Part shown: one piece after another, positions 3,995 through 17,429 of the stretch
How positions within the stretch are numbered: the stretch's first letter is position 1
How the letters are laid out: each line of letters starts with the position of its first letter
Origin: an uncultured Acidimicrobiia bacterium
Lineage (GTDB): Bacteria > Acidobacteriota > Terriglobia > Versatilivoradales > Versatilivoraceae
Length of the DNA: 64,000 nt
Reading direction: 5' to 3'
Assembly (NCBI GenBank): GCA_963786955.1
Contig: CAWBAT010000003.1
Coordinates: 288,001-352,000, forward strand
Notes under the pieces: model-generated
The model's input: the letters and a program-made list of their open reading frames with translations, nothing else
Told to the model about the DNA's origin: nothing
Database searches by the model: none
Translations under genes and position numbers: made by a program

Positions 3995-4987
3995 CTAGCC
4001 TGGCACCGGGGCTTCTTCGCGGATGAATCGTTCATTCTTTAATTCAGCCCAGAAGGCTTGTGGAATGTTTTCTTCGAAGGCCTGAAAATTCTCCACAACC
4101 CGCTCTGGAACCCGAGTGCCCGGAATCAAACAAGTCACGGCGGGGTGAGCCAGTGCAAATTGGGTGGCGGCAGCCTTAAGCGAAACATGGTGACGAGCCG
4201 CGACTGCCTGAATGCCTCGTGCTCTTTCAAGGATTTCGGGCGAGGCATCCTCATAGTTGTACTTGGCGCCCGGACTCAAGTCGCTGGCGAGAATCCCGCT
4301 ATTATAGTGCCCGCCGAGCATGATTCCGATGTTCTTCTGCTGACACAAGGGAAATAGTTCGTCCAATGCCCCCTGCTCCAGCAGACTGTAACGGCCTGCC
4401 AGCAGAAAACAGTCAAAGTCTCCTTCGCGAGCGAAACGCGCCAGCATTTCACATTGGTTCATGCCGGCACTCACGCCGCGAATCACCTTTTGGCGGCGTA
4501 ATTCATCCAGTGCCGGATAAGCCCCCTGAATAGCCTCCTCCCAGTGGTCGTCAGGATCATGGATGTGGAGAATATCGATCCGGTCGAGTTTCAACCGCTG
4601 CAGACTCTCTTCAAAGGAGCGCATGACGCTATCATAGCTAAAATAAAATTTCGGGCGAACCGGAGGGGGACTGCCCCAGAAGGCGTCTTGACTTCGATCG
4701 CCATCCTCTACCGAAACCAGCAAACGTCCCACTTTTGAGGAAAGCACATAACGGTCCCGTGGAACTCCCTTCATTGCGTTGCCCAGGCGAACTTCGCTTT
4801 TCCCGTAGCCATAGAGTGGAGCCGTATCAAACAAGTTGATTCCGAGCCCTAACGCCTGTTGGACGACCGCCGTTGCCTGCTGATCAGGGATATCCCCGTA
4901 AAGGCCGCCCAGGGCAGCGCAGCCGAGTCCCAATCGAGTGACGGGCAATCCCGTTTTCCCCAATATTTTCTTGTCTGTTGGTTTCAT
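3995..4987 (-). CDS. Aldo/keto reductase (D-threo-aldose dehydrogenase-like)
   Basis: LGLGCA, DTAPLYG, SSKVGR, SLQRL, IHDPD motifs. Confidence 0.9.
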   Translation of the reverse strand: MKPTDKKILGKTGLPVTRLGLGCAALGGLYGDIPDQQATAVVQQALGLGINLFDTAPLYGYGKSEVRLGNAMKGVPRDRYVLSSKVGRLLVSVEDGDRSQDAFWGSPPPVRPKFYFSYDSVMRSFEESLQRLKLDRIDILHIHDPDDHWEEAIQGAYPALDELRRQKVIRGVSAGMNQCEMLARFAREGDFDCFLLAGRYSLLEQGALDELFPLCQQKNIGIMLGGHYNSGILASDLSPGAKYNYEDASPEILERARGIQAVAARHHVSLKAAATQFALAHPAVTCLIPGTRVPERVVENFQAFEENIPQAFWAELKNERFIREEAPVPG

Positions 4988-7786: not shown

Positions 7787-10700
7787 ATGTCACGCAAGCC
7801 CGCCTTCTGGATCGTACTCGCCTTGATTTCCTTGTCGGGAATCTTCTTCACCTTTAAATATTTTTCGGAAGCTTTTCCCATCGTCACGCTCGACTTGAGC
7901 ATGGATCGAGCCGGCGCGCTCAAGTTGGCTGCAGATCTGACTGCCAAGTACCAATGGGGCCCTAAGGATTACTCTCCTGCCGCTTCCTTTGACCTTGATA
8001 GCGAGGTGCAAAACTACGTTGAACTGGAAGTCGGCGGGAGCAGAGCCTTTAAAGAGTTGCTAAAGGGGGGATTTTATTCTCCTTACCTGTGGCGGGTGCG
8101 TCATTTTAAGGAGGGCGATCCTAACGAAACCGTGATTCGTTTCACACCGGATGGCAAACCCTATGGTTTTCGCGAGAGACTGGCTGAAGATGCTCACGGC
8201 GCCAGTCTTTCCCCTGAAGAGGCCCGGATCATCGCGGAGAAGGCTGCCACTGAACAATGGCAAATCCTCCTCAACCAGTATGTGGCCGTAGAAACTTCAC
8301 AGGAAGAGCGGCCTGGAGGACGGCGCGATCACACTTTCGTTTACGAACGCCCGAATCAAAAAATGGGAGAAGGTCTGTATCGCTTGCGACTCGTGGTGGG
8401 AGGGGATCGTTTAACGGAATTGACGCACTTCATCAAGATCCCGGAGGCTTTTGAACGCCGTTACGAAGAGATGCGTTCAGCTAATGAAACCCTTGCCTCC
8501 GTCGCGCAATACTTGGTGTTGATTCTTTACCTTGGAGGGGGATGCGTCGTCGGACTCTTCTTTTTGCTTCGCCAACGCTGGGTCAGCTGGAAAAAACCTT
8601 TGGCTTGGGCTGCGTTTATTGCTTTCCTGAATTTACTGGGTGGTCTGAGCGCCTTGCCTTTGAGCTGGATGTCATACGAGACCGCACTTTCTGCGCGCGC
8701 TTTCTTGACTAAGGAGATTCTCTCTGAAATCGGCGGTTTTGCACTCTGGACAATGGTTCTTACCTTGACATTTATGGCGGCAGAGGGGTTGACCCGAAAA
8801 GCCTTCCCCCAGATGATCCAACTTTGGAAACTCTGGTCACCGGACACAACCAGCAGCTATTCGGTTTTAGGACGCACCCTTGGCGGATACCTGATCGTTG
8901 GTTTCGACTTTGCGTTTGTGGTGGCGATTTACTTTGTCACGACCCGGCATTTTGGATGGTGGACCCCTTCCGATGCACTGTTTGAGCCAAACTTGTTGGC
9001 AACTTATCTGCCGTGGCTATCGGGGGTAGCTCAATCCCTCCAGGCAGGGTTCTGGGAGGAATGTCTTTTCCGGGCCGTGCCCCTCGCTGGCGCAGCTCTC
9101 ATTGGACAACGGCTGGGCAAGAGAAATCTTTGTATCGTGATCGCATTTATCCTCCAAGCCCTGGTCTTTGGCGCCGGCCATGCCAATTATCCCAGCCAGC
9201 CAGCCTATGCACGGCTCGTTGAGTTGATCATTCCCTCCTTTGTCTTCGGAGGAATCTATCTGACCTACGGACTGCTGACTTCCATCATCTCTCATTTTGT
9301 TTTTGATGTGGTCTGGTTCTCCTTACCTCTCTTCATCTCCACGGCGAAGGGCATTTGGATCGATCGGGCAATTGTCATCCTGTTGACCCTCACTCCATTG
9401 TGGGTTGTTTTGCGGGCACGTCTTAAAAAGGGAGCCTGGGGGACTGTCCCGGAAGAGGCATACAATCGTGCCTGGAAGCCCAGTGAACAAAGGATCGAAA
9501 CGGGCGCAACTCGAGTGACCGAGATCACAGAACTTCGCCCTAGGGTCTCGTTGCGTTGGTTAATGGTTGGGGCATTGATTGGAATAGCCCTTTGGATTAC
9601 CAGCACAAATTTCAACCAAGATGGACCGTTTATTGCGGTAGGCCGCCGCTCCGCGGTAGAAATCGCGCGCCAGACCCTCGAGAAAAAAGGTGTTGTGCTG
9701 AATTCGGAATGGAAGGTTTACCCTTCGATTCGCGGCAATGTGGATTCCCAGGACCGATTTGTCTGGCAGACTGGCGGCCGGAAGATCTACCAGCAGCTAA
9801 TGGATCCCTATCTGCCGCCTCCTGGATGGAATGTACGATTTGCACGATTTAGTGGGGATGTCGCGAAACGGGCGGAAGAATACCACGTGGACATCGGAGC
9901 GAGCGGCGAAGTCATCCGCTTCCAGCATATCCTTCCGGAAAAAGCTCCGGGTGACAGTCTGCCAGAGGCTCAAGCTCGAGCGTTAGCTCATGAATCCTTA
10001 AGAGCGGCATTGCGGTTAGAGCCTGATGGGTTAAAAGAAATTTCCGCTGTGCCTGGCAAGCTTCCAGCTCGCACGGATTGGACTTTCACTTTTTCTGACC
10101 CGAAAAAATATCCTTTAAAGGAAGGCCAGGCTCGAACGGTTATCCTTCTGGCAGGAAAAGAATTGGCAGATGCTTATTTTTATATTTTCGTCCCGGAAGA
10201 GTGGGAACGACGGGAAACCGCCAGGTCGATACATTACGAGACCTGATCGTCATCTGCTGTTGGGCATTTCTCTTATTGGGGTTTTTAGTGGCCGGGATCA
10301 TGGCGATTGTGCAGTGGAGCCGTAGGAAATTTCCGGTTTCAACCTTTCTTTTCTTCTTTGCCGTTTCCGGTCTCGCCCATATCGTGAGCTTCGTCAATCA
10401 CTGGCCCGTCACCCTCTCGAACCTTTCTACCGCAGAGCCCGTGACCCATCAGCTATTTAAGACCATCACCGGCGGGCTTGTCAGCATCTTGCTGCAGTCT
10501 TCGTTCGTAGCGTTGGTAATGGGATATCTACAAACAAAGCTCTCGGAAAAGACCGGATTCGAGCCCGACACTGTTTGGATCCGGGGAGTCTCGGTGGCTT
10601 TGATTTTCTCAGGGCTGCTCGCTTTATTAAATCATTTTGGCGCGCCTTCGCTCGCCCCACGATTCGCAGATTACGGGCACTGGGGTACCTATGTTCCCCT

Positions 10701-11178
10701 GCTGGATAGTGCCTTGGGCGCGGTCACCGAATTGATCAATAGCATTGCCATGATCTTGCTTTACTTTGTGTTTGCGGATCGACTGTCTGCCAGTTGGTCA
10801 CGAAAGAAGCTGGTAGTTTTTTTCTTTTTCCTGATTTTGGGATTGTCTCTGGCGGGCTTGCAGGAAATTGAGAGCATCAAGTACTGGGCCTTTTCTGGTC
10901 TCCTCTCAGGATTATTGATGTGGGGAGCTTACGTTCTGGTCTTCCGATTTGGGCTGCTCAGCCTGGCTTTTTCAGTCGGGACGGTGATCGTTCTCGGAGC
11001 CATCAAGCAAGCAGTCTACCATCCATTCCCTCATGCAGTCCTAGCAGGCCTTGTGCAAATCATAACCGTTGGCGTGTTGAGCTACTATTGTGTCAAAAAA
11101 CTGGAAGGCCAGGGCAGCTCAACGAGGTGTCTGATTGAGCATCGGGTGGCGCACCCATTAGAAGGCCTTTGTCAATAG
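7787..11178 (+). CDS. Large CPBP (CAAX/Abi) family intramembrane metalloprotease; frameshift near 10240, 3' end runs into the IS
   Basis: WEECLFR, FGAGH, IISH motifs and many TM segments. ORFs 7787-10246 and 10201-11178 are joined. Confidence 0.8.
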
Positions 11179-11718
11179 AACAAACTACCCCTTGAGTGCG
11201 ACGTAGACTTTTTTGCAAAGGCTCCCTTGCCAGATTCCTTTCTCGATCTTCAGAGCTAGCGGCTCATCGAGGACCGTACGCTGTCTACCGGCGGCCTTAG
11301 CTGGGTCTACGGGCTAAATTCCTTAGCTTTCTCCAGCCATGATTCGAACTGGAGAAGGCGGAAGGATCTCGGCCGAGTTTTTGAACCACGCACCCAGGGT
11401 TTTCTTGCTTGAGGATCGGCTCGTATCGAGTCCGTCCATGCACCCATCAGGATCAAGGCTATCGAGGACCATTGGCCTCATTAGCCCCTGGCGCCGTGCG
11501 GCGCCCCAGAAAATCGTTGGTACCAGACCGTGTCCAATGGGCGTGACCGGGTCACAGAATCGGTGGTTCTCCAAGCCAACCGGCTTGGACCAGCGCCGGG
11601 CAGGCTCGCGGTCTGGGCGTGCTCGAAAACATCAGCCTATATCGGGACGGGGACTGTGTCCAATCAGACAGCTGGATTTACACCAGCGCCACCCAAGGCT
11701 CACAGCCCCCACCCAGCT
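11179..11718 (-). ncRNA. Predicted bridge/seek RNA region, copy 1
   Basis: Mirror of 14561-15100. Confidence 0.65.
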
Positions 11719-12738
11719 TTAGCTGCTGAACAAGCGGGTCGGTTCAAACCGCACCTGATCTCGCAGCACATAATAACAGGCCCGCGCCAGCTTGTGAGCC
11801 AGGGCCTTAATTGCCAGCGTCCGATTGACGGCGGCTGTTTTCCGTTCCACAAATCGTCGGGCTGACCCATACGACCGGGCCGCGTGGGTCGCTGCCTCCA
11901 CAAAGGCCCAGGCCAGATACCGGTTGCCGTTATGGCGGTTGTTCTCCCCTTTCTTCTTCTGGTTGCTCAACCGGGTGCTGGCGACACAGCGGCAGTAAGA
12001 GGCGTAATCACCGACTTGAGGGAATCGCCCGATGTCGCCGGTCTCCAGCCAGATGGTCAGGGCGAGAATTGGTCCCACCCCATAGACACTTTGCAACAAC
12101 TCAAAGGAGGCTTCCGGCTTGGCCTGGCTCTTGAGCTGTTTCTCAATGACCGCAATCTGTTTGTCCAGAGCCTGGATCACCAGCAGCGAACTCTCCACCG
12201 CCAGCCTCCGTTCCCGGTCGGGAAACAACTCCCGAACCTCGGCGACACTCAGCTGCCGAATCGGGGTGTCGGGACTGCGCCGTCCCTGGTGGCGACTCAA
12301 CAGATTGTTGACGTGCAATAACTGACTGGTGCATTGCCTCACCAGAAAACTGCGTTGTCGCAACAGATCTCTCAGTGGCCGCTGCCCAGCCGGGTAAATG
12401 TAGCCGGTTGGCAAAAGCTTCAGCCGCAGCATCTCCCCCAGCCAGCGCGCATCTGACTTGTCGTCACTGTACTTGAGCCCCTGGTACTGCTGCATCGCAT
12501 TCGGGTTGGCCAGCTTCACCGAGTAGCCCGCTTCCTTCAGTCCATCCACCAACCAGTACCAGTTGTAGGTCGACTCCACGGCCAGCTCCACAATCTGCTC
12601 TCGATACGGCTCTAGTTGCTCTAGCACCACCATCATCTCATTGGGCAACCGACACCGATGCACCACGATTCCTCCTTCGTCCAGCAGCACCAGATAACTG
12701 TTGTTGGCATGCAGATCGATTCCGCCATATAGTTTCAT
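11719..12738 (-). CDS. IS110 family DEDD recombinase/transposase
   Basis: GIDLH, VEST, KYSDDKSDA, GVGP motifs. Protein identical to 13541-14560. Confidence 0.95.
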   Translation of the reverse strand: MKLYGGIDLHANNSYLVLLDEGGIVVHRCRLPNEMMVVLEQLEPYREQIVELAVESTYNWYWLVDGLKEAGYSVKLANPNAMQQYQGLKYSDDKSDARWLGEMLRLKLLPTGYIYPAGQRPLRDLLRQRSFLVRQCTSQLLHVNNLLSRHQGRRSPDTPIRQLSVAEVRELFPDRERRLAVESSLLVIQALDKQIAVIEKQLKSQAKPEASFELLQSVYGVGPILALTIWLETGDIGRFPQVGDYASYCRCVASTRLSNQKKKGENNRHNGNRYLAWAFVEAATHAARSYGSARRFVERKTAAVNRTLAIKALAHKLARACYYVLRDQVRFEPTRLFSS

Positions 12739-12832
12739 CAGAGGTCTCCTTTCGGGATTAAGTTCGGTACTTAACCCTGAGTCTATCCCATTCGGATAGA
12801 CTCAGGAGGCCTTCTAGATGATTATCAGACAT

Positions 12833-13446
12833 GCGCAGTGTGCATGTCTGCGAGGAGAAAGAATGGTCATGGGTGCGCCACCCGGCGATTTCGGGAGTCA
12901 TCTACTATTGTTTTCTGCTATTGCCTGCTCCGAGGTTCTGGGCCCACTGGCAATTCTGGGGGGGCTTGTTATCTTTGTGCCTGTTGGAATATGTAAACTG
13001 CGTGGACGCAGACGTAGCAGGTAGCGCCGAGTTGATTTTCAACTCTGCGGCTATTTGACACCGGAGAGGAGAAAAGCCGCGGACCCGAAAGTCGGGTCCG
13101 CGCTACACTCGGGCAAAGCCGCGTCGCGGCGGCCTGTCTCTAGAATAGAGTGTTTGGCAAGGATCGCAGCTCCGTCAGGAGCGACCTGTTTGCAGCCATG
13201 CTCTGCGGGAAAATGGGGGGGCCGAGACCTGGAAAGCTGGTAGCCAAGATTGACGCGCTTTTTGCGGCTATCGGGGGCTTGTACTCAGGTTATTCGCTGT
13301 CCACGATTGACCGGCATAACGTGCCGGTCAATCGTGGCTACCCATATTCTATGCCTCTACTAACTGTAAACCCGAGGACTCCTGCATCAGCTGAAGAGCC
13401 ACTTTGTTGTTGAAACATTTATCTCACGCAGACATGCGCAAACCAC
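12833..13446. repeat. 614-bp REP-rich spacer between the IS copies
   Basis: Empty catgggtgcgccacccg arm (12868-12884), a GTAG REP pair (~13020-13106) and agctccgtcaggagcgacct (also at ~51630). Confidence 0.6.
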
Positions 13447-13540
13447 ATGTCTGATAATCATCTAGAAGGCCTCCTGAGTCTATCCGAATGGGATAGACTC
13501 AGGGTTAAGTACCGAACTTAATCCCGAAAGGAGACCTCTG

Positions 13541-14560
13541 ATGAAACTATATGGCGGAATCGATCTGCATGCCAACAACAGTTATCTGGTGCTGCTGGAC
13601 GAAGGAGGAATCGTGGTGCATCGGTGTCGGTTGCCCAATGAGATGATGGTGGTGCTAGAGCAACTAGAGCCGTATCGAGAGCAGATTGTGGAGCTGGCCG
13701 TGGAGTCGACCTACAACTGGTACTGGTTGGTGGATGGACTGAAGGAAGCGGGCTACTCGGTGAAGCTGGCCAACCCGAATGCGATGCAGCAGTACCAGGG
13801 GCTCAAGTACAGTGACGACAAGTCAGATGCGCGCTGGCTGGGGGAGATGCTGCGGCTGAAGCTTTTGCCAACCGGCTACATTTACCCGGCTGGGCAGCGG
13901 CCACTGAGAGATCTGTTGCGACAACGCAGTTTTCTGGTGAGGCAATGCACCAGTCAGTTATTGCACGTCAACAATCTGTTGAGTCGCCACCAGGGACGGC
14001 GCAGTCCCGACACCCCGATTCGGCAGCTGAGTGTCGCCGAGGTTCGGGAGTTGTTTCCCGACCGGGAACGGAGGCTGGCGGTGGAGAGTTCGCTGCTGGT
14101 GATCCAGGCTCTGGACAAACAGATTGCGGTCATTGAGAAACAGCTCAAGAGCCAGGCCAAGCCGGAAGCCTCCTTTGAGTTGTTGCAAAGTGTCTATGGG
14201 GTGGGACCAATTCTCGCCCTGACCATCTGGCTGGAGACCGGCGACATCGGGCGATTCCCTCAAGTCGGTGATTACGCCTCTTACTGCCGCTGTGTCGCCA
14301 GCACCCGGTTGAGCAACCAGAAGAAGAAAGGGGAGAACAACCGCCATAACGGCAACCGGTATCTGGCCTGGGCCTTTGTGGAGGCAGCGACCCACGCGGC
14401 CCGGTCGTATGGGTCAGCCCGACGATTTGTGGAACGGAAAACAGCCGCCGTCAATCGGACGCTGGCAATTAAGGCCCTGGCTCACAAGCTGGCGCGGGCC
14501 TGTTATTATGTGCTGCGAGATCAGGTGCGGTTTGAACCGACCCGCTTGTTCAGCAGCTAA
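13541..14560 (+). CDS. IS110 family DEDD recombinase/transposase
   Basis: Same protein as copy 1; AAGGAG RBS upstream. Confidence 0.95.
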   Translation: MKLYGGIDLHANNSYLVLLDEGGIVVHRCRLPNEMMVVLEQLEPYREQIVELAVESTYNWYWLVDGLKEAGYSVKLANPNAMQQYQGLKYSDDKSDARWLGEMLRLKLLPTGYIYPAGQRPLRDLLRQRSFLVRQCTSQLLHVNNLLSRHQGRRSPDTPIRQLSVAEVRELFPDRERRLAVESSLLVIQALDKQIAVIEKQLKSQAKPEASFELLQSVYGVGPILALTIWLETGDIGRFPQVGDYASYCRCVASTRLSNQKKKGENNRHNGNRYLAWAFVEAATHAARSYGSARRFVERKTAAVNRTLAIKALAHKLARACYYVLRDQVRFEPTRLFSS

Positions 14561-15100
14561 AGCTGGGTGGGGGCTGTGAGCCTTGGGTGGCGCTGGTGTA
14601 AATCCAGCTGTCTGATTGGACACAGTCCCCGTCCCGATATAGGCTGATGTTTTCGAGCACGCCCAGACCGCGAGCCTGCCCGGCGCTGGTCCAAGCCGGT
14701 TGGCTTGGAGAACCACCGATTCTGTGACCCGGTCACGCCCATTGGACACGGTCTGGTACCAACGATTTTCTGGGGCGCCGCACGGCGCCAGGGGCTAATG
14801 AGGCCAATGGTCCTCGATAGCCTTGATCCTGATGGGTGCATGGACGGACTCGATACGAGCCGATCCTCAAGCAAGAAAACCCTGGGTGCGTGGTTCAAAA
14901 ACTCGGCCGGGATCCTTCCGCCTTCTCCAGTTCGAATCATGGCTGGAGAAAGCTAAGGAATTTAGCCCGTAGACCCAGCTAAGGCCGCCGGTAGACAGCG
15001 TACGGTCCTCGATGAGCCGCTAGCTCTGAAGATCGAGAAAGGAATCTGGCAAGGGAGCCTTTGCAAAAAAGTCTACGTCGCACTCAAGGGGTAGTTTGTT
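14561..15100 (+). ncRNA. Predicted bridge/seek RNA region (3' non-coding region)
   Basis: Structured region containing a donor match tgtctgat (14609-14616) and a target match atgggtgc (14832-14839), each closely followed by TGGAC. Confidence 0.65.
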
Positions 15101-15175
15101 CTATTGACAAAGGCCTTCTAATGGGTGCGCCACCCGAGATTTACGGGAACACCAATCTTCAAATATGATAAGGCT

Positions 15176-15751
15176 TCATTTTCGACCAGCAGCGTCAATG
15201 CTATTGGTTGGATCTGCTCCCTCCAAGTGAAACATCGGCGGTCGGTCCATAGGTCGAAGGGACATCCTTCTCCAGCAGCCGCAAGTAAACCGTGAGTTGC
15301 GTTCGATGATGGGCTGTATGCAGGACTCGCGCCAGAAGATCCAAATTCTTTCCCTTTCCACATCAAAAAAACAAACTTTCTCGAGCCACCAAGGTTCTTC
15401 CTTAGCGGCGAGAAAATTCAATCGTGGCACTGCCAACTCCACCAGGCGGGAAGCAAAATCTCCCGGCGTTTCCTGGGCGAGTAGGATCTGAGCGGGAGCA
15501 GGTTCTGGAGAGTCTAAAAACTCTCCAAAAAATCGCCGCTCTGAGAGGAGTTGATGTTTCAGGATCTCGAGCACACTGCTGGATCGTGGATGTGGCTTAA
15601 AACTCAAATCATCTAAGGTGAACTTTCCCCAAACCGAGGCGACTTTATTTGTCTCACTGACATAGGTGTCCAGAAGATGCTGGAATTGCGGGGAAATGGC
15701 TGGGGGAATCTTCGAATCTGGAATTGAAATGGTGGAGTAACCCATAGACAT
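15176..15751 (-). CDS. DinB family protein (two compensating frameshifts near the C-terminus)
   Basis: FKPHPRS..ILKHQLLSE; the alternative frame gives VLHTAHHRTQLTVYLRLL. Confidence 0.75.
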   Translation of the reverse strand: MSMGYSTISIPDSKIPPAISPQFQHLLDTYVSETNKVASVWGKFTLDDLSFKPHPRSSSVLEILKHQLLSERRFFGEFLDSPEPAPAQILLAQETPGDFASRLVELAVPRLNFLAAKEEPWWLEKVCFFDVERERIWIFWRESCIQPIIERNSRFTCGCWRRMSLRPMDRPPMFHLEGADPTNSIDAAGRK

Positions 15752-16073
15752 TTATTATACCCCTGTAAAGATGACCAGAATGGCCCGTATACTGCGAAGC
15801 AAAAACTTCTTCATGCTAGCAACCCATGGCGAAACGTCAACCAAGGTACTATTGTCCCACCGCACATTGCGGCAATATATGTCGTGATTGCGTGCTCTCT
15901 TTCTACCCTCCAAGAACCCAGTGGGATCATAGCCTTGGGGCCTGTTTCAGGGTAAACAGTGGCTTCTGAATGTCCCCCATTTTATTGGACACAAATGATG
16001 CGAGATTATAGGATGTCGGCCTAATAATGAACCGCTCACTTGGAACGATCCGTCTTCGCAATAGGAAAAGGGA

Positions 16074-17429
16074 ATGAGTTCGGGAAACAGCTCTACTGTC
16101 AGTAGCCAGCGGAATGCTTTCGCACGTTTCTTTAAGTCTGAAGCAACGAGCAGCATCCTTCTTCTGTTGTGTACGATTGTCGCCCTCCTGTGGGCGAACT
16201 CTTCAAGATCCGAGCTGTATAGTCATATTCTCCAAACTAAGGTTGGGCTTTCATGGGGGGATTCGAAGTTTGCGTTGTCTCTGCACCACTGGATTAATGA
16301 CGGCTTGATGACCTTGTTCTTCTTCATCGTCGGTTTGGAAATCAAGCGAGAAATCGTGGTCGGCCAACTCTCATCTTTCAAGAAGGCCGTTCTCCCTGTC
16401 GCTGCGGCCGTAGGTGGCATGGTTGTGCCCGCGCTGATCTACCTGAGTCTCAACGCTGGAAGCGAAGGGGCTCGCGGATGGGGCATTGCCATGGCGACGG
16501 ATATTGCCTTTGCCATTGGAATTTTGTCCCTGCTGGGTTCGCGCGTCCCGGTGGGCCTCAAACTGTTTCTCACGGCTCTAGCCATTACGGACGACCTGGG
16601 AGCCGTTCTCGTGATCGCCGTGTTCTATACGGACCATATACGAGTAGGGGCACTGTTCGCCGCGGCTGTCTTTCTCGCTCTGCTGGTTGTCGCGCAACGG
16701 TTGGGAATCCGGCTTGCCTCTGTTTATGCGGTCCTGGCTATTGGTGTCTGGGTGGCGATTGTGATGTCCGGTGTGCATGCCACCGTGGCAGGGATTCTCG
16801 TCGCCATGGTTGTGCCGGTACGCCCACGCATTGAGCCCAAGAAATTCCTCAGCATTGCCCGTGACCGCATTGGAACCCTTGAAAACAATCTCGCATCTGA
16901 GAGCACGACTCTTGTTCGAGAGCAGATCGATGCCATCGAAACATTGCATATTGCCACGAAGGACGTGATCCCAGCTGGACTCTCATTTGAGCACTATCTC
17001 CATCCGGTGACGGCCTACGTCATCATCCCGTTATTCGCGCTCTTCAACGCCGGTGTAGCGGTCAACGCCGGTGTCGTCAGTGCGTTCGTCAATCCCGTCA
17101 GTCTCGGCGTTCTCATGGGTCTCTTCGTGGGTAAGCAGGTCGGGGTCACCCTTGCAAGTTGGATTGCGATTCGCCTTCGTGCAGCCGAAATGCCTCCGGG
17201 AGTCACTTGGGGACAGATCTATGGAGCGGCCATCTTGGCGGGAATTGGTTTTACGATGTCGCTTTTTGTCGCGGATCTCGCTTTTCCGAGCGGGACTCTG
17301 ATTGGCCCGGCCAAGCTGGGCATCCTGGCCGCTTCAACACTGGCTGGCGTTGCGGGATATGGAGTACTCCGCATCGCCTTACGGAAGGTGGCTAAGCCGG
17401 CCAATATGCCATCAAGCTCCCTTCACTAA
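16074..17429 (+). CDS. nhaA: Na+/H+ antiporter NhaA
   Basis: WINDGLM, GLEIKRE, ATDIAF, TDDLG, GIGFTMSLF. Confidence 0.95.
   Translation: MSSGNSSTVSSQRNAFARFFKSEATSSILLLLCTIVALLWANSSRSELYSHILQTKVGLSWGDSKFALSLHHWINDGLMTLFFFIVGLEIKREIVVGQLSSFKKAVLPVAAAVGGMVVPALIYLSLNAGSEGARGWGIAMATDIAFAIGILSLLGSRVPVGLKLFLTALAITDDLGAVLVIAVFYTDHIRVGALFAAAVFLALLVVAQRLGIRLASVYAVLAIGVWVAIVMSGVHATVAGILVAMVVPVRPRIEPKKFLSIARDRIGTLENNLASESTTLVREQIDAIETLHIATKDVIPAGLSFEHYLHPVTAYVIIPLFALFNAGVAVNAGVVSAFVNPVSLGVLMGLFVGKQVGVTLASWIAIRLRAAEMPPGVTWGQIYGAAILAGIGFTMSLFVADLAFPSGTLIGPAKLGILAASTLAGVAGYGVLRIALRKVAKPANMPSSSLH

Follow-up and report, generated by a model that had tools for sequence, protein, structure and literature searches.

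A conserved RNA in the right end of an IS1111-group insertion sequence that probably reads both the insertion site and the ends of the element

Examination of positions 14561-15125 of the window (the whole stretch of 64,000 nt that was analysed) revealed the right non-coding end of an insertion sequence of the IS1111 group. We consider it probable that the first ~330 nt of this end (14565-14892), which are conserved and structured, constitute one bridge/seek RNA in which loop 1 binds the target and the rest forms a multi-branched donor-binding domain. The boundaries of the element, its copies, its conservation, helices with compensatory changes, and the co-variation of guides with DNA were all seen directly. 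The pattern goes beyond chance, since 48 non-redundant homologous elements show these modules again, and with compensatory changes. A guide RNA that reads both an insertion site and the element's own ends is of a known kind, here unusually well resolved, and a long right end is ordinary for this clade.

The element and its transposase

The gene preceding the region (13541-14560, plus strand) encodes a transposase/recombinase of 339 aa with two Pfam domains: an N-terminal DEDD (RuvC-like) domain (DEDD_Tnp_IS110, PF01548; residues 6-149, E 1.4e-13, 51.4 bits for a cut-off of 29) and a C-terminal Transposase_20 domain (PF02371; residues 213-296, E 1.5e-13, 51.4 bits for a cut-off of 21.3). The C-terminal motif of the window protein reads ...CRCVASTRLSNQKKKG, with SNG and, in a few cases, TNG in the homologues inspected. 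Beside the conserved S(t)G with which Siddiquee et al. (2024) end the motif G-P----S(t)G, the Ser appears to be kept and is followed by Asn where that motif has Gly. Relatives of the transposase in genome contigs numbered 538, of which the best 80 are 48-70% identical to it; the top match of a tblastn search of plasmids is 51.5% identical and is annotated merely as "IS110 family transposase". A search of E. coli genomes for ISEc11-like DNA gave no match.

The element is 1,674 bp long (13454-15127, counting one core), and its genome contains three near-identical copies, two within the window and one on contig C4. The second copy in the window is inverted (11152-12825, minus strand); together the two copies make up repeat arms of 1711 nt, separated by a gap of 574 nt, and the only difference between them is at position 14911, in the variable tail. 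All three copies occupy the same place in the same orientation, within the 3' arm of a REP-like palindrome, at the common site CGCAGACATG(C)-N7-9-CATGTC|TG|CGCCACCC, and CGCCACCC is identical beside each of them. There is no long target duplication, and TG alone is common to both junctions of the three copies; we therefore assigned it as the core (13452-13453 at the left junction and 15126-27 at the right, plus strand). In the homologues L044, L050, L061 and L075, both junctions have C as their first core base. None of the 70 GCGCCACCC sites in the whole genome is a perfect site left unoccupied, and the five related IS-free sites lack CT and would thus be mismatched to the left-flank guide described below.

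Two other placements of the boundary were considered and rejected. A core of GT had been drawn from five IS-free REP-like sites, but these are not true pre-insertion sites, the homologues share only TG(A) at both junctions, and it is the T that changes to C at both junctions of homologues. The sequence ATGGGTG(A/C)CCCC as a part of the IS was rejected because the loop 1 guide of the homologues pairs with the bases that follow TG.

The left end (13454-13540, plus strand, 87 nt) opens with ATAATCAT, the first donor bases, and also carries a -10-like GATAAT (13453-58), a 13-bp hairpin (13473-503) and a ribosome-binding site; its TGATAATCATCTAG is kept among homologues. The right terminus (15104-15127, plus strand) comprises a -35-like TTGACA (15104-09), the final IS bases ATGGG (15121-25) and the core TG, and across homologues TTGAC lies at a constant distance from the element end. 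Joining the two ends yields the predicted circle junction ...CTAATGGG-TG-ATAATCATC..., in which TTGACA-17 nt-GATAAT is, on a reading of the sequence, a candidate junction promoter. Assignment to the IS1111 group is supported by the sub-terminal inverted repeats of the 7-17 bp class, which are set in from the ends (TAGAAGGCC, 13463-71, 9 nt inside the left end; GGCCTTCTA, 15112-20, 5 nt inside the right) and are seen as a pair in homologues too, and from the longer non-coding side being downstream of tnp, with 565 nt after the stop codon (14561-15125) versus 87 nt upstream of the gene.

An earlier note on this DNA had reported about 560 nt after the stop codon, in agreement with our measurement, with a quoted end (15100) that falls 25 nt short of the IS end; every string that it quoted was found where it had been placed. 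That this length is special to the element did not survive comparison with homologues, since the right ends of 59 of these range from 295 to 671 nt (median 452). The final part of the region before the right terminus is a variable tail (14893-15103, plus strand) that has no conserved structure and includes partial repeats of 14809-30 (D6, D7). Between this tail and that of the closest homologue, L011, 118 of 257 aligned columns are identical, mostly in the final ~75 nt. No Rfam 15 model matched positions 10000-16500 at E up to 1, which says merely that no curated model fits.

Loop 1 and the target site

Loop 1 (14565-14635, plus strand) is assigned to target binding by the conservation of its stem and the pairing of its guides. 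The layout that had been proposed for this module is present in all of its parts: a stem (14565-78/14621-35), GAGCC (14578-82), ttgggtggc (14583-91), an inner hairpin (14592-608, with gctgg/ccagc at 14592-96/14604-08), tgtctgat (14609-16) and TGGAC (14617-21). In homologues 9 of 9 stem pairs have changed on both sides, and the CC in GAGCC is paired to the GG in UUGGAC.

The right-target guide UUGGGUGGCG (14583-92) pairs with the right target flank CGCCACCCGA (15128-15137, plus strand) through nine Watson-Crick pairs and one wobble in 10 nt. The pairing of ttgggtggc with donor gccttctaa, as first suggested, is possible (six Watson-Crick pairs, two wobbles and one mismatch), but the right flank fits better. 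The opposite strand of the loop, 14609-16, is composed of the left-target guide UGUC, the core UG and the handshake AU, and so corresponds to left flank, core and the two IS bases that come first; the equation of tgtctgat with the donor right of the core was accordingly right for the last two bases, the others being left flank and core. A reading of the target of the bridge RNA or seekRNA type is thus found, in that 14583-92 pairs with 15128-37 and 14609-14 equals the left flank plus core.

Homologues point the same way, many of their flanks being those of single copies from metagenome bins. In 11 of 43 elements the right guide matches its own flank without a break over 7 or more bases counted from the core, versus 3.6% with foreign flanks, and the left-flank guide agrees at 5/6 bases or more in 8 of 39 elements, versus 4.0%. 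Positional co-variation of the loop 1 guide, scored strictly, is further evidence; a scan that allowed wobble pairs was uninformative. The core and handshake are identical to the left end in 38/39 elements, including all six with left ends other than TGAT.

Probable guides for the ends of the element

A third guide-like segment, GCCUUGAUCCU-GAUGGG-UG-CA-UGG (14820-14843, plus strand), is identified by its identity to, and co-variation with, the right junction. Its AUGGG (14832-36) is a copy of the last IS bases, the following UG (14837-38) is the core, and C(A) (14839-40) represents the first flank base or bases as a handshake, so that 10 of 11 bases are identical to 15118-28. The same relationship appears in the list of repeats, where CTGATGGGTGC (14829) matches CTAATGGGTGC at the true right end (15118). 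The string ATGGGTGC occurs seven times in the window (2.31 +/- 1.45 expected; 0/100 shuffles reached seven), and four of the seven occurrences lie within or edge the two IS copies; one is at 12869. A match of atgggtgc at 14832 (followed by a and by TGGAC, 14841-45) to the target had been noted previously: a real guide-like segment does lie there (14831-40), and what it reads is the right end of the donor plus one target base.

The donor-guide 25-mer is present in 68 of the 74 loci scanned. In a sample of 59 loci plus the window, letters that depart from the consensus are shared by RNA and junction in 2/2 cases at LD-4, 5/5 at LD-2 (A, C and T), 1/1 at LD-1 and 5/6 at RT+1. At the second handshake position, RT+2, the match holds in 2/6 variant elements and the window is itself mismatched (A versus G), and in 10 elements the DNA has C or G in place of the core T and the RNA still has U, a wobble at best. 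Co-variation with the right end, by segments that carry handshake bases, supports the predicted reading of the donor by this RNA.

The candidate guide for the left end is strand J, ACGAUUUUCU (14762-14771, plus strand), which may alternatively pair with 14874-79. Its ACGAUUUU (14762-69) makes 6/8 Watson-Crick pairs with ATAATCAT at 13454-61, with mismatches that are constant at +2 and +7. Among 13 elements with a variant left end, the element's own left end pairs better than the consensus in 10 and worse in 3. The left-end guide makes just 3-4 of 8 pairs in 10 elements with the left end TGATAATCATATAG (those named are L021, L025, L027, L039, L041, L048, L068, L077 and L078). We regard the case for strand J as a guide for the left end of the IS as suggestive.

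Long-range helices

The strands on either side of these guides are joined by helices, most of them long-range. Strand A (14653-14662, plus strand) consists of A1, UCGAG (14653-57), which pairs with 14849-53, and A2, CACGC (14658-62), which pairs with 14888-92. Strands B (14844-53) and C (14856-62), which together span 14844-14862 on the plus strand, form either a local B:C hairpin or, through B and A1, a long-range helix, and the segment 14874-14892 (plus strand) supplies E7a, AGAAAAC (14874-80), as a partner for J and E7b, GCGUG (14888-92), as a partner for A2, in both cases on the basis of compensatory changes and the fold. Pairs changed on both sides number 7/7 for A:B, 5/5 for A2:E7b (91.4% paired), 5/7 for J:E7a and 7/10 for B:C. 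Between J and the donor-end guide are a conserved hairpin (14774-14789, plus strand), GGCGCC/GGCGCC with CUGG and AGGGG as flanks, in which 5/5 pairs have changed on both sides and 93.3% are paired, and a variable hairpin (14795-14819, plus strand) that differs in length and sequence in every homologue and keeps only its closing GGC/GCC.

In the alignment of 49 RNAs 89.5% of cells are paired, versus 72.2 +/- 0.6 in shuffled alignments (0/500 as high), a comparison in which kin sequences may exceed shuffles without any structure; the same pairing slid along the alignment gives at most 43.7%. In an analysis of duplex energies with segments anchored on alignment columns, none of 2000 permutations did better than the RNAs' own partners for any of the five pairings, and three controls gave 65, 699 and 1814 of 2000. 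An unconstrained fold of the window RNA contains A2:E7b, J:E7a and B:C. A:B and B:C are mutually exclusive, as are J:E7a and the pairing of J with DNA.

These helices account for further matches listed in the earlier note. The string tgggtgcg (14883-90), which had been matched to the target and which recurs as a repeat (TGGGTGCATGG and TGGGTGCGTGG, 14833/14883), is the strand of an RNA helix with 14658-62, and the motif is independent of homologue flanks; ctaatg (14795-800), matched to the donor, lies in the hairpin that has no conserved sequence. We also rejected a resemblance of the E7 region to the left flank (9/38 versus 7.5%), which we attribute to A-rich composition.

The loop 2 arm

Module 2 (14663-14756, plus strand), marked by stem changes and by the repeats D1 and D9, was described as a repetition of the module 1 scaffold, and so it proved: GAGCCT, GGCGCTGGT and ATTGGACAC all recur with different inserts, and the two modules share the repeats D9 (14589/14682, 100%) and D1 (14615/14741, 92%). 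Like loop 1, the arm is built on GAGCC...GGCGCUGG...AUUGGAC; its 5' strand (14677-84) is variable, and GAUUCUGUGA is found at 14718-27. Whether the module is conserved had been made a decisive question, and the alignment and co-variation check on homologues showed that the stem is kept through compensatory changes (ccagaccg/cggtctgg, 14663-70/14749-56; 9/9 pairs changed on both sides and 92.9% of cells paired). We place loop 2 as one arm of a multi-branched, probably donor-binding, domain that is held by long-range helices.

We found no DNA partner for the loop 2 strands among the flanks and ends of the window element and homologues, and no left-flank guide in module 2. Runs of 7 or more matches between the 5' strand and the flank occur in 2 of 43 elements (2.9% for foreign flanks), a free search gave runs of 6 or more in 9 of 44 (11.3% for foreign flanks), and the 3' strand GGAUCUGUGA is conserved and follows no left flank. 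Pairing of the 3' strand with UUGAUCC of the donor segment was rejected for want of compensatory changes, and pairing of the loop 2 strands with the left end, the sub-terminal repeats or one another was rejected for want of a consistent match. One homologue, L043, lacks the loop 2 arm; because it is the sole full copy in its own genome, it permits no inference on the need for the arm. A 476-nt match near L043 is the 3' remnant of another copy, and it does have the loop 2 arm.

The proposal of an expanded RNA with an extra loop thus holds as far as architecture is concerned, the RNA part being far longer than a two-loop seekRNA and having more than two simple loops. The proposed second target is not supported: module 2 has no left-flank guide, its 5' strand matches the flank weakly, and we saw no sign that the element uses another target.

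A model for the RNA and alternative explanations

In the model that we favor, the active element inserts into the 3' arm of a REP-like palindrome, at ...CATGTC|TG|CGCCACCC, and the RNA (14565-14892) would be made as one molecule, transcribed with the transposase gene or after it, and bound by the recombinase. The 5' strand of loop 1 would pair with the top strand of the right flank, and its 3' strand, in the sense of left flank, core and the two initial bases of the left end, would include a handshake as in IS621. GAUGGG-UG-C (14831-39), whose sense is that of the last IS bases, core and initial flank base, would have the bottom strand as its partner at the right end; at the left end, the probable partner of ACGAUUUU (14762-69) is the top strand. 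With its loop 1-like scaffold, the loop 2 arm probably seats the second recombinase dimer, and the long-range helices would gather the strands of the donor domain. The remaining 235 nt would be a variable spacer, then the -35 half of the junction promoter, then the sub-terminal repeat.

We also considered, as a rather unlikely elaboration, that the RNA is a bridge RNA of three modules that can switch between two conformations. With A:B closed, the left-end and right-end guides would be open in the junction beside a second recombinase-binding arm, whose 5' strand would here read the start of the target flank; in the fold with B:C, J:E7a and A2:E7b, the left-end guide would be masked by downstream sequence. 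Which fold forms would depend on the order of transcription or on 3' processing around 14855-14870. Such a switch, if true, could part excision from insertion or restrict activity to RNA made from the circle.

Alternatively, modules 2 and 3 might be additional guide modules, for a second target, for a separate excision guide or for several processed guide RNAs. Loop 2 repeats the entire scaffold of loop 1, its 5' strand varies among close relatives as a guide would, and the 3-5 bases of that strand beside the hairpin track the start of the right flank (CGC, CGT, CCA, ACA and ACC types); in L018 the flank match of loop 2 exceeds that of loop 1 (9 versus 7), and in L028 it is 8. Two exclusive folds could also separate two reactions, and a truncated target-loop RNA is reported in a preprint to work together with the bridge RNA of an IS110 element (10.1101/2025.10.25.684509). 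We nevertheless judge this explanation unlikely, given that the loop 2 5' strand matches its flank at the rates reported above, that the conserved 3' strand does not follow the flank, that all three genome copies occupy one type of site, and that the third module reads the right end of the IS itself, as every bridge RNA needs to do. Quite unlikely, in our assessment, is that loop 1 is the only guide, with the other conservation serving, for example, the stability or processing of the mRNA 3' end and with 14820-43 acting as a pseudo right end at the DNA level. The segment does resemble the right end with 4 extra bases, the tail has partial repeats of 14809-30, and ISPpu9 is described with repeated end boxes and several kinds of circle in the part of PMC12288879 on which we draw. 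For ISEc11, the short form of the seekRNA (70-100 nt, loop 1 only) is stated to be sufficient for transposition and the role of the long form to be unknown (PMC11187229, in the part considered). Against this, neither the window nor the homologues have a left-end-like box after 14838, neither a shortened form nor a solitary piece of the IS occurs in the genome (the only matches being the three full copies and a 31-nt palindrome), and the IS lacks any complement of ATGGGTGC by which both sites could be read. Moreover, the five helices around 14820-43 have compensatory changes, which argues for selection on RNA, and the layout of a flank-sense strand, core and two partner bases mirrors the 3' strand of loop 1. 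A small protein is highly implausible: an 83-aa frame (14705-14956, plus strand) and a 127-aa frame (14557-14940, minus strand) are both open, but neither has a Pfam family at E up to 0.1, and homologues differ by hairpin-sized indels of many lengths and vary in paired columns.

Relatives 90-99% alike are represented by contigs from RNA libraries. Those of one run span 14515-14776 and 14810-15063, and two further runs contributed 14210-14769 and 14435-14731; such contigs reveal neither ends nor strand, may derive from carried-over DNA, and are uninformative where they do not cover. We rejected an RNA end at 14769-14776, as suggested by two contigs from two studies, because other loose-ended contigs stop there, where the hairpin loop varies.

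Comparison with known systems

Among the closest known systems are the IS1111 elements for which seekRNAs have been described (ISEc11, ISPa11, ISKpn4 and ISPst6; Siddiquee et al. 2024, PMC11187229). As far as the consulted part of that report extends, the shared features are a 339-aa transposase (in ISEc11), a long non-coding region downstream of tnp from which the RNA comes, sub-terminal inverted repeats, a single place of insertion in a folded or REP-like target, a top-strand match 5' of the bottom-strand match that meets it at the insertion point (here in loop 1), and the formation of a promoter by end joining, which here is read from the bases alone. Those seekRNAs have short forms of 82-96 nt and long forms of 148-172 nt, whereas the conserved structure here is ~330 nt long. 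The donor-end guide begins 271 nt past the stop codon; in the same part of PMC11187229 no donor-reading segment is named, and what binds the IS ends is stated as not known. The view that IS1111 RNAs are described with two loops was incomplete in this respect, since Durrant et al. (2024, PMC11208160), in the portion considered, noted donor nucleotides of IS1111 elements in a multi-loop. Own-end recognition by IS1111-type elements thus stands as unknown in one source (PMC11187229) and is sketched as a "multi-loop" in the other (PMC11208160), so far as the parts consulted go. The clade provides a worked natural example, in which substitutions that arose independently in several lineages support a right-end guide with a handshake base. 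Concrete designs for making the donor side of IS1111-type recombinases programmable follow from it, and the two exclusive folds are a testable idea on how excision and insertion might be kept apart. At the level of genome annotation the result is routine: a new IS1111-group element in three copies, in REP-like palindromes.

ISPpu9 of Pseudomonas putida KT2440 (Pares-Guillen et al. 2025, PMC12288879) also belongs to the IS110 family, has a REP target, and has a right-end-like sequence repeated internally, downstream of tnp. It is of the IS110 group, and in the consulted portion of that paper its inner and outer boxes flank a self-mobile sRNA gene and its circles have no junction promoter. The present element differs from it in having no left-end-like box after the inner copy and no solo module in the genome.

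The RNA of IS621 is about 177 nt long. IS621 and the present element have in common their family, protein domains and a REP target, and, in the parts considered of the IS621 reports (PMC11208160, PMC11208158, PMC13626964), one RNA likewise serves target and donor, reads both strands and has a 2-nt core. The guide-adjacent handshake bases that match the other DNA partner are as described for IS621 (Durrant et al. 2024; Hiraizumi et al. 2024, 2026), handshake guides being set out in PMC11208158. The core is TG here and CT in IS621. The IS621 RNA lies upstream of its gene and has two simple internal loops, whereas the RNA here lies downstream with the order of the guides reversed, and, unlike those of IS621, its predicted donor guides are in the junction strands of a multi-branched domain with a second loop 1-like arm.

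The element, its copies and its insertion site

The region under study (14561-15125) is the right non-coding end of an IS1111-group insertion sequence (13454-15127) of 1,674 bp, which has 87 nt upstream of its gene, 565 nt downstream, and sub-terminal inverted repeats of 9 bp (13463-71 and 15112-20). The gene (13541-14560) encodes a 339-aa protein with both IS110-family transposase domains. An inverted repeat of 1711 nt (11142-12852 / 13427-15137) reveals a second copy 574 nt apart, differing from the first at a single base (14911), and a third copy is present on contig C4. Judged by its sequence, the element shows the group-defining IS1111 features that were checked, except for Ser-Asn instead of Ser-Gly: in the catalytic-region motif LSNQKKKG (residues ~255-262, window 14303-14326) an Asn, rather than a Gly, comes after the conserved Ser. 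The homologues inspected have SNG or, in a few cases, TNG in this motif, for which the pertinent part of PMC11187229 gives SG or TG.

Comparison of the flanks of the three copies placed the left junction at ...CGCAGACATG(C)-N7-9-CATGTC/TG/ATAATC and the right junction at ...GGCCTTCTAATGGG/TG/CGCCACCC, where TG is the core between flank and IS. These junctions imply that, before insertion, the site formed a perfect palindrome, CGCAGACATG...CATGTCTGCG, with CCACCC after it; the element occupies the 3' arm of that palindrome. A core GT, first read from five IS-free look-alike sites, was ruled out because TG(A) alone is common to both junctions in homologues; in four homologous elements the core T is replaced by C at both junctions. 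The look-alike sites in the source genome (C6 ~285556, C4 ~784757, C8 ~530015 and C7 ~12434 on the minus strand; C8 ~530077 on the plus strand) read CATGT--GCG (CATGT--GCGCCACCC or near), without the CT that perfects the palindrome in the three occupied sites, and would therefore be mismatched to the left-flank guide. Among the 70 GCGCCACCC sites of the genome, no free perfect target site was found.

A lone 17-mer at 12869-12885, ATGGG TG CGCCACCCG, equals the right junction sequence and has no adjoining IS end. A gap of 16 nt separates it from the palindrome arm beside which the inverted copy has its left end; an earlier insertion into the opposite arm of this palindrome may have left it behind. 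A perfect 13-bp hairpin, CCTGAGTCTATCC / GGATAGACTCAGG (13473-13503; 12776-12806 in the other copy), separates the left sub-terminal repeat from the ribosome-binding site, with a hairpin of other sequence at the equivalent place in homologues. The hairpin may control read-through or translation.

Long right ends among homologues

A homologue scan with one genome per species gave 538 relatives, of which we kept the best 80 (48-70% identity) and, before analysis, removed five whose match contains a stop and one located at the edge of its contig, leaving 74 loci. A 25-mer around GATGGGTGAC is present in 68 of these, 130-431 nt downstream of the stop codon; it is absent in L058, L070 and L085, in L047 and L088 (just 311 and 236 nt of downstream sequence, respectively), and in L026, where an insertion interrupts it. 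The L026 insertion, of ~32 nt, splits the donor-guide segment midway, separating GATG from what follows, ~280-330 nt past the stop codon, and that copy may be disabled. In the 59 usable loci with a placed right junction, right ends measure 295-671 nt (median 452). The element is thus not exceptional in the length of its right end, contrary to what the earlier note supposed: members of this clade have long right ends as a rule, and at 565 nt the window's is among the longer ones.

The conserved layout consists of loop 1, a variable hairpin, loop 2, GUACCAACGGUUUUCUGGGGC-hairpin-GCCAGGGG and a variable hairpin, followed by GCCUUGAUCCUGAUGGGUGACUGGUGCG, a hairpin, GAAAAC.CGGGYGCG, a variable tail and the right terminus. 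The strings quoted in the earlier note were all found in place. A repeat search returned the scaffold repeats GGCGCTGGT (14589 / 14682) and ATTGGACAC (14615 / 14741), as well as the pairs CTGATGGGTGC (14829) with CTAATGGGTGC (15118) and TGGGTGCATGG (14833) with TGGGTGCGTGG (14883); ATGGGTGC occurs 7 times in the window versus 2.31 +/- 1.45 expected. At the right junction of L024 (approximately 4476-4517), 21 nt, CTAATGGGTGACCCCTAACTC, are duplicated in tandem.

Loop 1 is the predicted target-binding loop

Matches to and co-variation with the flanks identify loop 1 (14565-14635) as the loop that binds the target. Its strand UUGGGUGGCG (14583-92) in the window forms 9 Watson-Crick pairs and one wobble with CGCCACCCGA (15128-37), and UGUC-UG-AU (14609-16) repeats the final four left-flank bases, the core and the initial two IS bases. 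The 5' strand matches its own right flank in a run of at least 7 nt outward from the core in 11 of 43 homologues, versus 3.6% when foreign flanks are used; over the six positions preceding the core, agreement with the own left flank at five or more is seen in 8 of 39, versus 4.0%. In 38 of 39 elements the core and two further bases reproduce the element's own left end, every one of the six with a non-TGAT left end among them, and per-column co-variation singles out the same columns. The earlier note's pairing assignments were wrong: the ttgggtggc strand reads the right flank, not the donor.

Guides for the donor ends

The segment GAUGGG-UG-C(A) at 14831-40 has the same sense as CTAATGGG-TG-CG at the right junction. 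Across the 59 loci and the window, non-consensus letters in the last IS bases are always identical in RNA segment and junction: at the second base before the core in 5 of 5 cases (A in L017, L061 and L075; C in L018; T in L033), at the first in 1 of 1 and at the fourth in 2 of 2. Agreement extends to the first flank base in 5 of 6 (C in the window, L011, L057, L059 and L062) and to the second in just 2 of 6, with the window disagreeing. Ten elements have C or G in place of the core T in their DNA, with U kept in the RNA. Given this co-variation, and since no complementary copy of the motif was found within the element, the segment is best read as a bottom-strand guide with the architecture of the loop 1 3' strand. 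The match proposed here was thus a real guide, but one reading the donor right end rather than the target. Two other proposed matches fell away: tgggtgcg (14883-90), offered for the target, overlaps helix strand E7b, where GGGYGCG occurs whatever the flank, and ctaatg (14795), offered for the donor, lies within a hairpin without sequence conservation.

A guide for the IS left end is suggested, and only suggested, by ACGAUUUU (14762-69), which can pair with ATAATCAT (13454-61) at 6 of 8 places. Among 13 variant left ends, the own end is paired better than the consensus in 10 and worse in 3. Two mismatches are constant, pairing is poor (3-4 of 8) where the left end reads TGATAATCATATAG, and the strand is also engaged in helix J:E7a.

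Loop 2 and the multi-branched donor domain

RNAalifold was run on the window together with 48 loci (49 sequences, chosen from 55 by leaving out near-identical ones). It returned the loop 1 and loop 2 stems, small CC:GG helices within both loops, one conserved hairpin, and a long-range helix (A:B) joining the strand directly before loop 2 (A1, 14653-57; A2, 14658-62) with that directly after the donor guide (B, 14844-53). Changes on both sides were counted in 9 of 9 pairs of each loop stem and 7 of 7 of the long-range helix; overall, 89.5% of cells are paired, versus 72.2% shuffled and at most 43.7% slid. Three further helices that we proposed are borne out as well: J:E7a (14766-71 / 14874-79; 5 of 7 pairs changed on both sides, 80.2% paired), A2:E7b (14658-62 / 14888-92; 5 of 5, 91.4%) and a local hairpin of B with C (14856-62; 7 of 10, 75.2%). 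Own-partner duplex energies of these three were each better than all 2000 permutations, figures that overstate significance because the elements are related; three control pairings in the same test gave 65, 699 and 1814 of 2000.

A1 and C are mutually exclusive partners of B. The predicted fold of the window RNA up to 14895 contains A2:E7b, J:E7a and B:C unaided (-143.3 kcal/mol), and that of the RNA cut at 14855 takes the form with A:B. These predicted and co-varying helices would place the loop 2 arm (14663-14756) inside a multi-branched domain; with the conserved loop 1, they bear out the earlier suggestion of more than two loops. The loop 2 3' strand is conserved and its 5' strand variable, only a few hairpin-adjacent bases following the right flank; a free search of the flanks and ends of the homologous elements found no DNA partner for loop 2.

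Two natural deletion forms are known: L043:4017-4620 lacks the whole arm, deleted between GCCTTG and GGCTTG, and in L069:3210-3500 loops 1 and 2 are fused at their similar hairpins. As L043 is the sole full copy in its genome, neither form tells whether the arm is dispensable. That genome also holds several solo element 3' parts without a transposase gene, including C1:1247281-1247756, 2116626-2116975 and 1355486-1355693; one solo part, L093, is what is left of the 3' side of a different copy and has a loop 2 arm of its own.

Tail, terminus and expression

The tail (14893-15103) is weakly conserved, with 118 of 257 aligned columns identical to L011, mainly near the end. TTGACA at the terminus (15104-09), joined to the left end, gives TTGACA-17 nt-GATAAT, a putative junction promoter of the kind known on joined ends in the IS110 family from parts of PMC11187229 and PMC12288879. 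RNA-library contigs of relatives (90-99% alike; four runs) cover 14210-14776 and 14810-15063, and prove neither transcription nor ends; that of one relative begins at 14515. A promoter-like site (14481-14509, CTCACA-17-TATTAT, the second hexamer being preceded by TG) lies within the end of the transposase gene, where it overlaps a conserved protein motif, and we therefore draw no conclusion from it.

Comparison with known systems

The relevant portion of PMC11187229 gives seekRNA lengths of 82-96 nt and 148-172 nt; for ISEc11 it reports that a short seekRNA is sufficient and states that the binder of the IS ends is not known. Our search of the article literature on IS1111-type guide RNAs and recombinases listed no structural or biochemical work on the donor domain of such an element. 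The present element offers useful detail on donor recognition, together with a pair of mutually exclusive predicted folds. The guide order of loop 1 is that described for IS1111 seekRNAs in the corresponding part of Siddiquee et al. (PMC11187229), and its two extra bases resemble in behaviour the handshake guides of IS621, as portrayed in part of PMC11208158.
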